Under the pieces are notes generated by a model that was given only the letters and a program-made list of their open reading frames with translations, was not told the origin of the DNA and searched no databases. DNA of 64,000 nucleotides from positions 28,327 through 92,326 of the forward strand of contig CAVWLW010000013.1 of NCBI GenBank assembly GCA_963755715.1. Reading direction: 5' to 3'. The position numbers and the translations under genes were made by a program. Shown here piece after piece: positions 18,963 through 22,684 of the stretch (positions are counted from its first letter, which is position 1; each line of letters begins with the position of its first letter). The DNA comes from an uncultured delta proteobacterium. Lineage in GTDB: Bacteria > Desulfobacterota > Binatia > UBA9968.

Positions 18963-19916
18963 ATGGCATCGATCGGATTAATTGGGCTGGGTAACGCCGG
19001 CCGCCCAATGGCTGAGCGAATTCTCGCAAAGGGACATTCCCTCACGGTGTTTGATATCGACACCGGAGCGCTTGATCGGGTTGTCCAGCGCGGCGCACGT
19101 CCGGCGCATTCCGCGGGCGCGGCGGTCTCGGACATTACCATCACGCTGCTGCCGTCATCGGTGGAAGTGCGACAAGCCGTGTTGGGTGAAAACGGTGTGT
19201 TGAACTCACTTCGGCCGGCATCGACGGTGATCGATCTCAGCGGCACCGATCCGGATTGCGCGCGCGAGCTGGAAGAACGATTGCGGGAAACGCAGGCCAC
19301 GTTCATCGGCGGGACGATTCACGCCAGCGGCGCGCCGGCCGTAGTGATTCCACAAGGCCGATTCTCGATCGTCATCGGGGGAGAGAAAGCCAAGATCGCG
19401 GCCGCCGCGGCTTTCCTGAACGAAGTGGCGCAAACGGTTATCTGTTTGCCCGAGCCGTGGATGCCGAAGGCTTTCAAGATCGCGATCATCCTATACGCGA
19501 CGGCGAATAATATCATCACCGCGGAAATTTGTTCTTGGCTCACCGCCCAAGGCGCCGACCCGAAGTTGTTTCTCAAACTGTTGCAGACTACCGGCTCCCA
19601 AGCTTCCGCGATCCGCATGGAAGAGTTCATGAAGCGCAAGAATAACCACGGCGGCGCGCTCAGCAACAGCTACAAAGATTTCCGCCAAGCTTTAAGCATC
19701 GCCGCAAAGTTGGAGATTCCGATGCCACTTGCGTCGACGGCCAATCAGATCCAAGAAATGGCGCGGGCGAGCGGCTTCGCGCGGCTCAATAGTCCGGCCG
19801 CGATGGGCGAGCTGTACGAGCTGATTACGGGCACCGATTTGAGCGGCGCAACGATGGACGCCGAAAAGAAACTTCACGAGGAATGTGAGCCGCGAGTGAT
19901 CTACTTGGCTGAATAA
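18963..19916 (+). CDS. NAD(P)-dependent oxidoreductase, 3-hydroxyisobutyrate/6PGD-like family
   Basis: IGLIGLGNAGRPMA Rossmann motif, ITLLPSS and KDFRQAL. Confidence 0.88.
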   Translation: MASIGLIGLGNAGRPMAERILAKGHSLTVFDIDTGALDRVVQRGARPAHSAGAAVSDITITLLPSSVEVRQAVLGENGVLNSLRPASTVIDLSGTDPDCARELEERLRETQATFIGGTIHASGAPAVVIPQGRFSIVIGGEKAKIAAAAAFLNEVAQTVICLPEPWMPKAFKIAIILYATANNIITAEICSWLTAQGADPKLFLKLLQTTGSQASAIRMEEFMKRKNNHGGALSNSYKDFRQALSIAAKLEIPMPLASTANQIQEMARASGFARLNSPAAMGELYELITGTDLSGATMDAEKKLHEECEPRVIYLAE

Positions 19917-20026
19917 AGGCGAATCCGAAAGCACTAGATTTTTTATGGGGCTGAGCCAGGAAAACGTGAAATTGCCGGGACGCCCGCTCGGTCTCCGCGG
20001 CGCGTTTGGCGCGTAGGATGACCCTC

Positions 20027-20088
20027 AAAAAAAAATTTAAAAAACTTAAAAATCTATCTTGACAGGAACGCTACACGGCGTTAGGAAT
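20027..20088 (+). promoter_or_regulatory. Putative sigma70 promoter with A-tract UP element
   Basis: A-tracts at 20027-20052, a perfect TTGACA at 20059-20064, and an imperfect -10 (TAGGAAT) 17 nt later at 20082. Confidence 0.65.
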
Positions 20089-20091
20089 TGG

Positions 20092-20495
20092 GTTAGCCCC
20101 AGCCTCCAAAGGGGTGAGAAGAGCACGAACGAAGCGCGCACGTTTTCAGCTCTTCGAAAGTGGAGGTCGATTATGGAAGATAGTCCGCCGGGCGAGTCAG
20201 GCCCGCAGACCGCGGGCGGCAGCAGTTCGAGCAAGCTACCAGTCAGGCATCGAGCTGTGTGAATCAAGCCCTCGACTTCGGCGCCAGTTAAGGCGCGAAC
20301 CCGGAGACGGGTCAATCAGAAGGTTGGGCTTCCTCAAAGCAGCCTCGAACTTTACTGACGAGAGAGCTGGTTTGAAGTCAAAGCTGCGTTAATTGCGGAA
20401 AGTGGGCAGCAGTTACTAAAATTAAATAAGCATAATGGCGCGATGGCGTCGGCAAAACGGGCAGGTCAATAGAGATGACTGCCCGTTTTGTTTTT
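20092..20495 (+). ncRNA. Candidate large structured non-coding RNA (family not recognised)
   Basis: Lies between convergent genes with its own promoter and terminator. It has at least 8 stems, including a long-range agttcgag/ctcgaact helix and an acccg-GAGA-cgggt tetraloop hairpin. Confidence 0.6.
20453..20495 (+). terminator. Intrinsic terminator, probably bidirectional
   Basis: caaaacgggcag...ctgcccgttttg stem followed by ttttt; A-run on the other side. Confidence 0.8.
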
Positions 20496-20552
20496 GTAAA
20501 CAGTGAAGCGAGCAAAGCGGCGTCGTGAGAATGCATGAGCCTCTGAGGTTGC

Positions 20553-21263
20553 TTATCCGCGCAGAAGTTTGCCGTATCCTTCAATCGACGCTTTCATGCC
20601 GAGGACCTGCATGACCCACCACAGCGCCGCCGCAGTGCTGGATACCACCGGCTTTCCCGTGTCATCTTCAAGTTCCTGGACATAGGCGACCGAGCGCCAG
20701 CGTCCCTGAATCAGCAAGCTATCGACATCAGGATGCTGGCGAAATAACTCACGCGCGACTTTATAGGACGCATAGTCCGGCAGCTTAACCTGATCCACTG
20801 GTTTAGAAACTTCCAAACCTTTGATCGCCAGAACTTCCAAGCCGCCGTCCTCGTAATATTTCTTGACGGCCTGATTAATGCTTTCCTTGTAGGCGGTAGC
20901 AATGACCGTGCTGCGGACCTTTAAAAATTTGAGCGCTGCCACTGTTGCGCTCATCGCTGTGCTGACGGGCAAGCCGACTTGCCCCGAGAGTTTCGCCACC
21001 ACTTCCTGTTCCGCCGCGTAACCGCGCTGCGTGCCCAAAGTGATACCGCCCATGAGAATCGCGTCGCACTCCTCGGCGGCGAAGATGCCCAAGCCGGCGC
21101 CGAGGGCATCGATCGCTTTGTTGAATTCGGCTTCAGTGTGAGCCTGGACGTTGAGACCCGAGGCAACGATCGTAAAGCCTTGAGGCAAGATCAAATCCCA
21201 ATCCGAAGGAGTTTCGAATACCGACGGCGATAAATATCCGATCCGTGCTTTCCAACCTGACAC
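20553..21263 (-). CDS. Maleate isomerase/arylmalonate decarboxylase (Asp/Glu racemase superfamily)-like protein
   Basis: WKARIGYLSPS, VIATAY and LEDDTGKPVVSS...ALWW...GYGKLL. Confidence 0.85.
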   Translation of the reverse strand: MSGWKARIGYLSPSVFETPSDWDLILPQGFTIVASGLNVQAHTEAEFNKAIDALGAGLGIFAAEECDAILMGGITLGTQRGYAAEQEVVAKLSGQVGLPVSTAMSATVAALKFLKVRSTVIATAYKESINQAVKKYYEDGGLEVLAIKGLEVSKPVDQVKLPDYASYKVARELFRQHPDVDSLLIQGRWRSVAYVQELEDDTGKPVVSSTAAALWWVMQVLGMKASIEGYGKLLRG

Positions 21264-21526
21264 GCGTTTCTCCTTGTTATCGAATTTTGAATTGGCGATA
21301 GTAACGGCGAGCCGACTGGGTCTTTCTATATCAATACACAGTCCATGAAAAGTCCTGGTGAGCGCTAGGAGGCGTCGCTGATTGTGGCTTGCCATGTAGC
21401 CTCAAACGAAACATGTCGCTTCGGCCACAGAAAATGCTATTCTGCGCGTCAAATATATAATATATATATGTTGCTCGAACGCTCAATAATTTATGATTTA
21501 ATGCTTTTATTTATGTTTTATATCTT

Positions 21527-22684
21527 ATGATATTAAAAAGAATTAAGTTTTTGCAGAGCTATTTCCGATCGGCCGCGCTATTGGCCGCTTTGGTCTTTTT
21601 GTTCTCGGCGGGACACGCTCTCGCCACCGGCGGCGAGAACCTGGAATATAACCAGCGCGCCACCGCGACGGCGCAAATTCTCGCCGGCATCACTCCCAAC
21701 CCGCCGGATCCCGCGTTGAAACGATTTGTCGAAGCTGACGCGTTTAAAGAGCACCAGCAGTGGATGACCTCTAGTTGGAATCAGGTGCGCAACCGCATCC
21801 AGACTATGGAAGCTTGGCGTACCCATGAGATCAAGATCGCGGGCGCACAGAAAAAAACCCTGATCTATCCGTTCAGCGGTCCGGATTTTTTAAATGCATA
21901 CGCTTTTTTCCCTGACCATGGACGCTACGTGTTCTTTAGTCTCGAAAGGCCCGGAACACTGCCTGATTTGGAATCGGTAACCCTCGTGCAGTTTACCAAG
22001 CTGCTGCAAGACGTGCGCAGCGCGTTTCGCGATATTTTCGAGCGGAATTATTTCATCACGTCGTATATGACCAAACAGTTGACGACACCGTGGATCCGCG
22101 GCACGGTGCCGGTGATGGCGACCATGATGGCGTTGATGAATCGGCGGATCATAAGAATAGAGCCCCTCGATCTGTTTCCGGAGCTCACTCACGCTTACGA
22201 TTCGCCGGAAGCAAAACGACCGCCGGTGGTGATGCGGGCCGTGCGCATCGAGTTCGCCAATCCAAATGCTTCGGGCACGCAACAGCTTTACTACGTTGGG
22301 CTGGACGCAACCGACAAAGCGCTCGAATTCTACCCGGACTTCCTCAATTGGGTTGGTCAGTATAAGCAGGCGACGGTTCTGATCAAATCGGCATCCTATC
22401 TGTTGCATGATCAGCAATTTTCAAAAACCCGCACCATGCTTTTGGACGCGGCCGACATCGTCGTGCAAGACGACACCGGAATCCCTTATCGCTATATCAA
22501 TCAGAATCCGTGGCAGGTGAAGTTATACGGGCGCTACCACCGACCAATCCGACCGATGAGGTATGGTTATCAGAAGGATCTCGAGGTAGCCTTTAATTCC
22601 CGCCAGGAGCAGAGTTCACTGCCATTTCCTTTCGGCTATCATTGGCGCGGACAACAGTCCGGTCTCATCGTCGCACACCGTTAG
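21527..22684 (+). CDS. Exported hypothetical protein
   Basis: 385 aa with signal peptide; motif-like blocks YPFSGPDF, KSASYLLH, VQDDTGIPY and LPFPFGY. Confidence 0.8.
   Translation: MILKRIKFLQSYFRSAALLAALVFLFSAGHALATGGENLEYNQRATATAQILAGITPNPPDPALKRFVEADAFKEHQQWMTSSWNQVRNRIQTMEAWRTHEIKIAGAQKKTLIYPFSGPDFLNAYAFFPDHGRYVFFSLERPGTLPDLESVTLVQFTKLLQDVRSAFRDIFERNYFITSYMTKQLTTPWIRGTVPVMATMMALMNRRIIRIEPLDLFPELTHAYDSPEAKRPPVVMRAVRIEFANPNASGTQQLYYVGLDATDKALEFYPDFLNWVGQYKQATVLIKSASYLLHDQQFSKTRTMLLDAADIVVQDDTGIPYRYINQNPWQVKLYGRYHRPIRPMRYGYQKDLEVAFNSRQEQSSLPFPFGYHWRGQQSGLIVAHR

Follow-up and report, generated by a model that had tools for sequence, protein, structure and literature searches.

A transcribed, structured RNA of about 400 nucleotides with a probable small reading frame, conserved across one order of Binatia

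Introduction

Does a 636-nt gap between two convergent genes of an uncultured Binatia bacterium hold a gene of its own, and is the product of that gene an RNA, a small protein, or both? Binatia are widespread uncultured soil bacteria. The window analysed here is the whole 64,000-nt stretch of contig CAVWLW010000013.1 (assembly GCA_963755715.1, positions 28,327 to 92,326 of the forward strand), taken from a genome (G000) that is 93.6% complete with a contamination of 4.2%. In the window, positions 19917-20552 separate open reading frame (ORF) 18963-19916 (+) from ORF 20553-21395 (-). This gap is evident in both the sequence and the ORF list, as had been pointed out in an earlier reading made from the letters alone (the sequence-only reading), which placed there an undescribed large non-coding RNA with its own promoter and terminator. 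Our full-text literature search returned no paper joining 'Binatia' with 'noncoding RNA', and the parts consulted of the literature on structured RNAs in soil metatranscriptomes held nothing relevant.

Here we report that the gap contains a transcript unit found in RNA libraries. It is shared across one order of Binatia, its helices covary, and its start signals are kept together with an N-terminal peptide motif. The observation is real and is more than chance would give. With roughly even confidence, we interpret the locus as a member of a new family of stand-alone RNAs of about 400 nt that combine a translated 5' half with a functional 3' RNA half, which would make it a candidate dual-function RNA.

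Results

Transcript unit

The features that delimit the transcript are as follows.

20027-20058 (+): A/T-rich tract resembling an UP element, read in the sequence and found at the same place in most of 12 aligned relatives
20059-20064 (+): -35 hexamer TTGACA, found in every one of the 11 relatives whose sequence extends to this point and in the distant loci L120-L123
20082-20088 (+): degenerate -10-like TAGGAAT, with the TA conserved in the alignment and 3/6 positions matching TATAAT
About 20094-20492 (+): transcript, from RNA-library contigs of four runs
20454-20495 (+): intrinsic terminator with a long stem (20454-20489) and a U-run; 97.7% of cells paired, with changes on both sides in 9/11 pairs

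The A-tracts, the perfect TTGACA at 20059, and the terminator listed in the sequence-only reading were thus all present; the -35 hexamer is conserved, and the terminator covaries. The A/T tract at 20027-20058 would serve as an UP element, and the -10 element is putatively assigned to 20082-20088 from its spacing and from an RNA contig beginning at 20094. The terminator stem also appeared in the single-sequence fold, and a Nanopore contig stops at 20492, inside the U-run. Given the A-run on its 5' side, the terminator could act in both directions.

Twelve runs registered as RNA contained a fraction of 0.47-0.53 of the sampled words of 19900-20600, and the RNA itself makes up about 0.57 of that stretch. 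These metatranscriptomes come from soil and rhizosphere, and 14 studies are named in the 20 rows of matching runs. We examined contigs from four runs of four studies, all with at least 99% identity to the window except one of the four X8 contigs (95-99%).

20094-20462: run X7 (8.5 million letters), whole 369-nt contig, word depth 40.6
20103-20462: run X3 (18.6 million letters), word depth 10.1
20108-20338 and 20309-20465: run X8 (1042 million letters), word depth about 20
20118-20492, followed by AAAAA: run X1 (Nanopore, oligo-dT; 16 million letters), word depth 27.6

None of the four runs covered any bin outside 20092-20499, and the flanking genes were uncovered; carry-over of DNA is therefore unlikely. 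The limits of the contigs agree with a start just past the promoter and an end in the U-run of the terminator. Since the A's follow the end of the oligo-dT Nanopore contig at 20492, the + strand fits. The same strand is indicated by two G-U pairs in an alignment of 57 sequences (A2, described below), U58-G39 (UG in 38/57) and U84-G16 (UG in 54/57), because these pairs, the commonest at both places, would be A-C mismatches on the - strand. Two breaks in the X8 contigs, at 20309 and 20338, lie on either side of a 30-nt stretch that does not vary among strains. Because their loose ends match the versions of other strains, we read these breaks as branching of the assembly and not as processing of the RNA. 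The earlier expectation of high + strand cover from about 20092 to 20495 was borne out in its extent, with contigs confined to 20094-20492, while the strand came only from the A-tail and the G-U pairs. The RNA is an independent transcript with its own promoter and terminator.

Distribution of the family and alignments

To BLASTN, the region was visible in 11/24 genomes of the same genus and in 0/16 genomes of the other two families of the order. We then scanned a pattern of two invariant motifs against collections of genome and metagenome contigs. The genome contigs gave 18 pattern loci, 15 of which align throughout and three of which are chance matches (L026, L035, and L042); the true loci are labelled Candidatus Binatia or carry older 'Deltaproteobacteria'-type names. 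From the metagenome contigs came 75 pattern loci, comprising 69 true loci, among them the divergent members L071, L072, and L113, and six chance matches (L055, L061, L094, L102, L103, and L106). Removal of duplicates left 78 distinct close-relative sequences. Alignment A2 consists of 57 sequences less than 97% identical to one another and excludes L021, whose 3' half is not alignable. Alignment A4 consists of 30 sequences, of which 18 are genus-labelled under 13 labels and the rest are loci of relatives and metagenomes.

A covariance model of 20177-20351 (R1) was used to scan the order at E<=0.01. It found one copy in the source genome and the RNA in 64/123 genomes of the order and 22/27 genera, so that the conservation in relatives anticipated from the sequence extends across one order. 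By family, the counts were 61/89 in f1, to which the window belongs, 2/5 in f2, and 0/28 in f3; many of the misses are incomplete metagenome-assembled genomes. In a sample of 151 genomes taken across the class, five were positive. Judged from the sequences scanned, the RNA family is restricted to one order of Binatia, with about 100 examples. Three genomes are flagged as unpublished: G005 contributes a single row (L013) to alignments A1-A4, and G212 and G228 enter only the order counts. No claim depends on any of these three alone.

Second, divergent copies were seen in some genomes, namely G012, G152, and, weakly, G009 and G024. The second copy of G012 (C275:31467-31636) scored 52.9 bits against 189.9 for the first, and the two copies of G152, L121 (C40) and L123 (C61), scored about 34 bits each and both keep TTGACA, the Shine-Dalgarno (SD) sequence, ATG, and a (T)PPG frame. 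Separately, locus L031, titled 'Chloroflexota bacterium', is identical to the same-genus Binatia locus L016 over the 100-nt core compared, and its title therefore looks like an inconsistency of labelling or binning.

Conserved structure

The + strand folds at -161.1 kcal/mol (z = -3.8; 0/100 shuffles as good). As the - strand is nearly as unusual (z = -3.4), folding energy alone does not pick the strand. On A2, 93.2% of the cells of a hand-drawn structure are paired and 33/68 pairs change on both sides; 0/500 shuffles reached any of five measures, and slid controls were 36-47% paired. On A4, which was fitted to a covariance model so that its pair counts lean towards structure, pairing reaches 95.7% of cells and two-sided changes are seen in 21/34 pairs, with 0/500 shuffles as good and slid controls at 42% or less. 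The elements of this structure are listed below, with the figures for the 3' domain taken from A4.

20097-20114 (+): P1, hairpin (CCCC/GGGG); 4/4 pairs change on both sides, 91.5% of cells paired
20118-20155 (+): P2, hairpin gaagagc/gctcttc with an inner stem 20128-20131/20141-20144; 8/11 pairs change on both sides, 92-93% paired
20184-20216 (+): GC-rich hairpin region within the ORF (CCGGGC / GCCCGC / GCGGGC), invariant, permitting alternative pairings
20224-20231 (+): 5' arm of a long-range helix, a possible alternative partner of 20344-20351; five core pairs kept
20250-20348 (+): 3' three-way-junction domain
20250-20254/20344-20348 (P5ext) and 20255-20258/20339-20342 (P5) (+): basal helix of this domain, the two parts stacked with a one-base bulge between them
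20266-20271/20326-20331 (+): P6, invariant within the genus; 5/6 pairs covary on A4
20281-20296 (+): hairpin A, covarying
20299-20312 (+): hairpin B, covarying in part
20313-20325 (+): conserved junction strand, near-invariant
20349-20436 (+): variable linker with a conserved G(C/U)GGGC at 20402-20407, where the GCGGGC columns are nearly invariant
20437-20450 (+): 3' hairpin (GRCGC-GAUG-GCGYC); 97.5% of cells paired, 2 pairs change on both sides

Covariation, which the sequence-only reading had named as a check, was found on A2 and A4 in the leader hairpins, the 3' domain, the 3' hairpin, and the terminator. The loop of P2 has a conserved AGCGCGC-type sequence that recurs in L121 and L123. Among sequences of the genus, conservation is higher in the 3' domain than in the peptide encoded upstream, and stretches of 11-13 nt in the junction and next to it do not vary. 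The hairpin inside the ORF is 99-100% paired yet shows no covariation on A2 or A4, and RNAalifold gave no consensus structure in the linker 20349-20436.

Two possible partners were noted for the linker G(C/U)GGGC (20402-20407): the 5' GCCCC at 20096-20100, proposed by RNAalifold, and the GCCCGC inside the ORF (20201-20206 / 20212-20217), proposed by the single-sequence fold. None of the three segments varies by position. The pairing of CCC at the 5' end with GGG in the 3' linker proposed by RNAalifold competes with the covarying P1.

Every stem drawn in the sequence-only reading exists in the window, and two of them, gaagagc/gctcttc and gcgcc/ggcgc, proved to be conserved and covarying in relatives. 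The stem acccg/cgggt likewise is conserved and covaries, whereas its GAGA loop, drawn as a GNRA loop, is specific to the window, with loops of 4-7 nt elsewhere. Four others did not extend to relatives as drawn. The pairing of gcctcca (20102-20108) with tggaggt (20161-20167), which would sequester the SD sequence, gave -8.40 kcal/mol for cognate and -8.08 kcal/mol for non-cognate duplexes, and 380/5000 permutations were as good. The gattat/atagtc stem exists only in variants with a 29-codon ORF, the tcgag/ctcga stem (20250-20254/20272-20276) meets CTCAA as its 3' arm in 11/12 aligned relatives, and the register of ccgcc/ggcgg is not conserved. Judged by the alignments, about half of the stems drawn are specific to the window.

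The 8-bp long-range helix 20224-20231/20344-20351, drawn as closing a multibranch domain, fared in between. Its core of 5 bp is kept in 51-71 of 77 sequences per pair, but the outer pairs are kept in only 19/77 and 38/77, and a test of cognate against non-cognate duplexes gave no signal (1470/2000 permutations as good). A rival helix, P5ext, shares its 3' strand. With its pairs kept in 57-72 of 77 sequences, P5ext has support no weaker than that of the long-range helix; its pair U50-A48 occurs as three Watson-Crick types (UA 37, GC 10, and CG 6). Both 5' sites are TCGAG-like and vary in concert with the 3' strand that they share, so the RNA may adopt either of two conformations.

Small open reading frame

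Downstream of P1 and P2, the RNA carries the signals of a translation start.

20162-20166 (+): SD sequence GGAGG, 6 nt before the ATG at 20173
20173-20262 (+): small ORF of 29 codons plus TGA (20260-20262), with the N-terminal motif x(S/T)PPGxxxP(L/P)xAG

Among the 78 close relatives, the SD sequence is GGAGG in 59, a 4-mer in 16, and a weak match in two, and one sequence could not be scored for lack of length; the distant homologs likewise have AGGAGG or GGAGG. All 78 have the ATG, and in 71 the frame has the canonical 29-32 codons and shares the TGA of the window. In the alignment, the start codon is found at three positions without leaving the frame, giving 29-, 30-, and 31-codon types. Frame 0 is free of stops in 75/78 sequences, and the other two frames are free of stops in 25/78 and 15/78. 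With stops in 2/47 distinct segments, frame 0 lies below the 6.8 +/- 1.6 expected (3/1000 column shuffles as low) in a test that ignores relatedness among the sequences, and frames 1 and 2 show no stop depletion against column shuffles. A 92-aa ORF on the + strand (20114-20392) occupies one of these two stop-rich frames over the span of the small ORF, and the ORF list also shows - strand ORFs in the gap.

Beyond the genus, 15 of 17 distant members have an ATG-initiated frame; 14 of these encode (S/T)PPG, and L149 encodes NPPG. L148 has an in-frame GTG behind AGGAGG, and L151 has PPC instead of PPG. Since the SD sequence, the start codon, a frame of 24-52 codons, and the N-terminal motif are kept across genera, the label 'non-coding' is not supported. 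The small ORF is probably translated, judging from these conserved signals. Of the 'undescribed large non-coding RNA', the evidence thus upholds an undescribed RNA gene, about 400 nt long, that has a promoter and a terminator of its own. The word 'non-coding' is probably mistaken; the SD sequence and the ATG frame had been missed.

Codons of the motif were tallied in 93/95 sequences (L105 and L146 do not fit the pattern).

P7 codon: CCA 70, CCG 23 (93 sequences)
P8 codon: CCG 90, CCT 2, CCA 1 (93 sequences)
G9 codon: GGC 90, GGT 2, TGC 1 (93 sequences)

At these three codons, 28/29 departures from the commonest codon are synonymous, and proline is retained in the CCA and CCT variants even though they disrupt a pair of the in-ORF hairpin. 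The peptides are hydrophilic, rich in Ser, Pro, Gly, and Ala, and have no hydrophobic segment. No match to Pfam or NCBIfam was found for the peptide, and a protein search with a natural 40-aa homolog returned only itself, which is no evidence that the peptide does not exist. Read-through of the UGA as selenocysteine was considered and rejected: 31 more codons are open in the window, but indels of 1-2 nt in hairpin loops break this frame in relatives.

Coding, structural, or both

Several points weigh against a transcribed unit with a translated 5' half and a functional 3' half. On the side of transcription, the -10 is poor, and no promoter or terminator was called by a simple consensus scan (0 of each). 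We did not take this result as decisive, given the degenerate -10 and the bulged terminator stem; moreover, contigs give no true RNA ends, strand, or level. On the side of structure, the fit of A4 to a covariance model has been mentioned. The remaining points concern the frame and its peptide. The stop-depletion test, as noted, neglects relatedness. The C-terminal half of the peptide is altered in 7/78 close relatives by an early stop (L017 and L051), a -1 frameshift (L034, L045, and L080), or a +1 frameshift (L053 and L068), amounting to three separate frameshift events and two early stops. Among distant members, the frame varies from 24 to 52 codons, and the peptides are unrelated past about codon 17. 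Entropy by codon position (0.67/0.55/0.70) gives a weak coding periodicity. P13 is CCG in 93/93 sequences and A16 is GCG in 92/93, both being invariant at synonymous sites, and x12 is fixed as NGC while its amino acid is free (Ser, Gly, Arg, or Cys). The invariance of the third positions of P13, A16, and x12 indicates a constraint at the RNA level on top of coding, and much of the apparent conservation of the peptide may be conservation of the RNA.

These points bear on two rival explanations. According to the first, the transcript is simply the mRNA of a protein of some 30 residues, the peptide being the sole effector and the leader hairpins and structured 3' untranslated region serving only stability or expression. 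It would account for the conserved SD sequence and start, the in-frame repositioning of the start, the depletion of stops, and the synonymous variation of the Pro-Pro-Gly (PPG) codons, and the strong promoter-like context and RNA-library cover would suit a highly expressed small protein. It does not account for a 3' domain that is more conserved than the peptide within the genus and covaries across genera, nor for a peptide whose C-terminal 40-50% is frameshifted or truncated in 7/78 relatives and unrelated in other genera, with weak periodicity. We consider this explanation rather unlikely.

According to the second, the RNA is purely non-coding, and the frame with its ATG is a by-product of GC-rich structural sequence. 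The invariant synonymous sites, the fixed NGC at x12, the frameshifted variants, the weak periodicity, and the extensive covarying structure elsewhere in the RNA all speak in its favour. Against it stand an ATG in 78/78 close relatives preceded by GGAGG or a 4-mer of it in 75/78, a start that moves yet stays in frame, the GTG of L148, and the depletion of stops in frame 0 only. In addition, the CCA and CCT changes break a stem pair and keep proline, and the in-ORF hairpin in which they fall does not covary. A purely structural RNA thus also appears fairly improbable, and we retain the candidate dual-function RNA as our interpretation.

Search for known RNA families

Rfam 15 (4227 models) gave 0 matches at the family gathering threshold on the whole window, and 0 on eight homologous loci. 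On the region itself, no family scored as well as E = 1, and the only two matches at E<=10, scoring 17.6 and 14.6 bits where the cut-offs are 70 and 65, were chance matches. ARAGORN found no transfer RNA (tRNA) or transfer-messenger RNA (tmRNA) in the window. The search of Rfam that had been suggested for the sequence therefore left the region and the eight loci without a known family.

Individual housekeeping RNAs were rejected as follows. The tmRNA of the genome is placed by RF00023 on contig C23 (196 bits), and the RNA studied here has an SD sequence and ATG, whereas the tag frame of a tmRNA has no start codon. The ribonuclease P RNA (type A) of the genome also lies on contig C23 (RF00010, 310 bits), and this model has no hit on the region. 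For the signal recognition particle (SRP) RNA, two RF00169 matches lie on contigs C47 and C12 and none in the window. For 6S RNA, RF00013 has no hit on the region even at E = 10, and the covarying structure is multi-domain and not rod-like with a central bubble. RF00013 found no 6S RNA anywhere in the genome, which is a weak negative, as the control detects 6S RNA in only 5/14 known genomes. These results agree with the earlier impression that no hallmark of tmRNA, ribonuclease P RNA, SRP RNA, 6S RNA, or tRNA is present: Rfam and ARAGORN are negative, and the first three RNAs lie elsewhere in the genome.

A very divergent housekeeping RNA, such as a 6S-like RNA that binds RNA polymerase, would fit the good RNA-library cover, and the lack of a 6S RNA found by RF00013 in a 93.6%-complete genome would leave room for it, though the control makes this point weak. 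It is set against by the absence of any Rfam family at E = 1 on the region or at gathering score on the eight homologous loci, by a multi-domain covarying structure in place of a rod with a central bubble, by the SD sequence and start codon, and by the tmRNA, ribonuclease P, and SRP RNAs found elsewhere together with the blank ARAGORN result in the window. We regard this origin as extremely unlikely.

As a side observation, the two SRP matches of the genome (C47:3979-4077 and C12:61606-61704; 69.9 and 65.9 bits) are each adjoined, at equal spacing, by a weak tRNA-like hit of the tmRNA model (C47:3793-3884 and C12:61423-61515). A duplication of the region, or the presence of a second strain in the bin, could explain these paired hits.

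Genomic context

The two genes that converge on the gap are as follows.

18963-19916 (+): NAD (nicotinamide adenine dinucleotide)-binding dehydrogenase of the 6-phosphogluconate/3-hydroxyisobutyrate dehydrogenase type
20553-21395 (-): Amdase-family protein

The Amdase-like gene is convergent to the RNA in 10/11 same-genus genomes and also at locus L119, and the upstream dehydrogenase is retained in only 4/11. At the loci L120-L123 of other genera, the 3 kb examined contain no Amdase-like gene. In the closed genome G025, the RNA is flanked by a ketoacyl-synthase gene on one side and by an unrelated gene on the other, and its downstream gene is on the same strand. Because the flanking genes differ between genera (L120-L123 and G025), the RNA is an independent gene and not an appendage of a neighbour. 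The earlier statement that it is the leader of neither neighbour is upheld by the convergent orientation of the next gene, the contigs that stop at the terminator, and the different flanks in G025.

A role in cis, either as a leader-peptide attenuator or by regulating the convergent Amdase-like gene through antisense or interference, might be suspected from the recurrence of this gene in 10/11 same-genus genomes and L119, from the A-run that permits termination in both directions, and from the alternative GC-rich hairpins formed by the ORF region. In the window, however, no gene follows downstream on the + strand, and the contigs stop at the terminator with none entering the Amdase-like gene; this gene is absent from the 3-kb loci L120-L123, the neighbours in G025 are unrelated, and about 190 nt separate the stop codon from the terminator. 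Such a role is very unlikely. A leader-peptide transcription attenuator in particular was rejected, as the next gene is convergent and the contigs end at the terminator.

Two observations concern the neighbourhood itself. The Amdase-like ORF is listed with 280 aa; tblastn alignments to relatives start at residues 12-45 and the Pfam match at residue 57, and its real start codon may therefore lie further downstream. Next to it, the following ORF is kept beside the Amdase-like gene in several relatives.

21527-22684 (+): ORF of 385 aa without a Pfam match

Discussion

For the candidate dual-function RNA, the following course of events can be proposed. The 5' half would act as an mRNA, in which two covarying leader hairpins are followed by a strong ribosome-binding site and a start codon, and only about the first 17 codons of the 24-52-codon frame are conserved. 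The 3' half would form a structured RNA module consisting of the three-way junction with its near-invariant junction strands, the small hairpin, and the intrinsic terminator. This module presumably binds a partner, which may be an mRNA, a protein, or a small ligand, and would act in trans.

The TGA and the last four sense codons of the small ORF lie inside the basal helix of the three-way junction. Because a terminating ribosome must open this helix, translation and folding of the 3' domain would be coupled. PPG is a strong pause motif that depends on elongation factor P (EF-P), and the Pro-Pro-Gly codons might slow the ribosome on the small ORF. These features lead to a more specific proposal, a translation-coupled riboregulator in which a ligand or protein is bound by the three-way-junction module and translation of the upstream Pro-Pro-Gly mini-ORF acts as the gate, the conformation of the RNA following ribosome traffic or the capacity of EF-P. 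In such a regulator, the two TCGAG-like sites in the ORF would pair alternately with the same 3' strand, and the stop codon would be buried in the basal helix. We put this proposal forward as speculative and doubtful; if true, it would mean a new class of well-expressed, order-wide RNA without a described counterpart.

The word depth of 10-40-fold in runs of only 8.5-19 million letters, in which the neighbour genes are unseen, suggests that the RNA may rank among the more conspicuous non-ribosomal transcripts of Binatia. The family adds a well-supported structured RNA with covariation in nearly every leader and 3'-domain helix and a clean transcript unit, and as a candidate dual-function RNA it would be unusually large for one outside the model phyla. 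Possible uses include the conserved junction for structure work, the peptide for metaproteomics, and the RNA as a marker of Binatia activity in metatranscriptomes.

Among known systems, the large RNAs 6S, OLE, GOLLD, ROOL, and raiA resemble the Binatia RNA in their RNA-library cover, restricted phylogeny, covarying multi-helix structure, and discovery by comparison. They differ in that no model of them matches it and in that they have no conserved SD sequence, start codon, and frame. The mRNAs of hok-type type I toxins are stable, highly folded RNAs of about 400 nt with a tiny ORF and long-range pairings between the 5' and 3' parts. The Binatia RNA shares the length, the high degree of folding, the tiny ORF, and possible long-range 5'-3' pairings, whereas its peptide is hydrophilic and no antisense partner is evident. 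A type I toxin mRNA was rejected as a class, since the peptides are hydrophilic and Ser/Pro/Gly/Ala-rich rather than hydrophobic and membrane-active. Some regulatory leader ORFs have many proline codons (mgtL and mgtP of Salmonella, for example), and they lie in front of further genes as their 5' leaders. With these and with EF-P-dependent PPG sites, the Binatia RNA has in common a short ORF, an invariant Pro-Pro-Gly near the start, and alternative GC-rich hairpins; in contrast to them, it has no downstream cistron and ends at its own terminator.

RNAIII of Staphylococcus aureus is 514 nt long and has the 26-aa hld frame in its 5' part; it is the nearest to the Binatia RNA in layout, the latter having about 400 nt and many hairpins. 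The parts consulted of four papers place RNAIII/hld with SgrS/SgrT, AzuCR, and VcdRP among the bacterial regulatory RNAs that have a dual function and bear a small ORF, AzuC having 28 aa and VcdP 29 aa (PMC12612679, PMC12310071, PMC8915982, PMC8672173). The Binatia RNA has no sequence or Rfam relationship to any of these RNAs, its conserved 3' part is a closed three-way junction and not a set of exposed C-rich loops, only the N-terminal half of its peptide is conserved, and its family is limited to one order. What it shares with them is a stand-alone, terminator-bounded transcript that unites a very small ORF with a separately conserved, structured RNA part.

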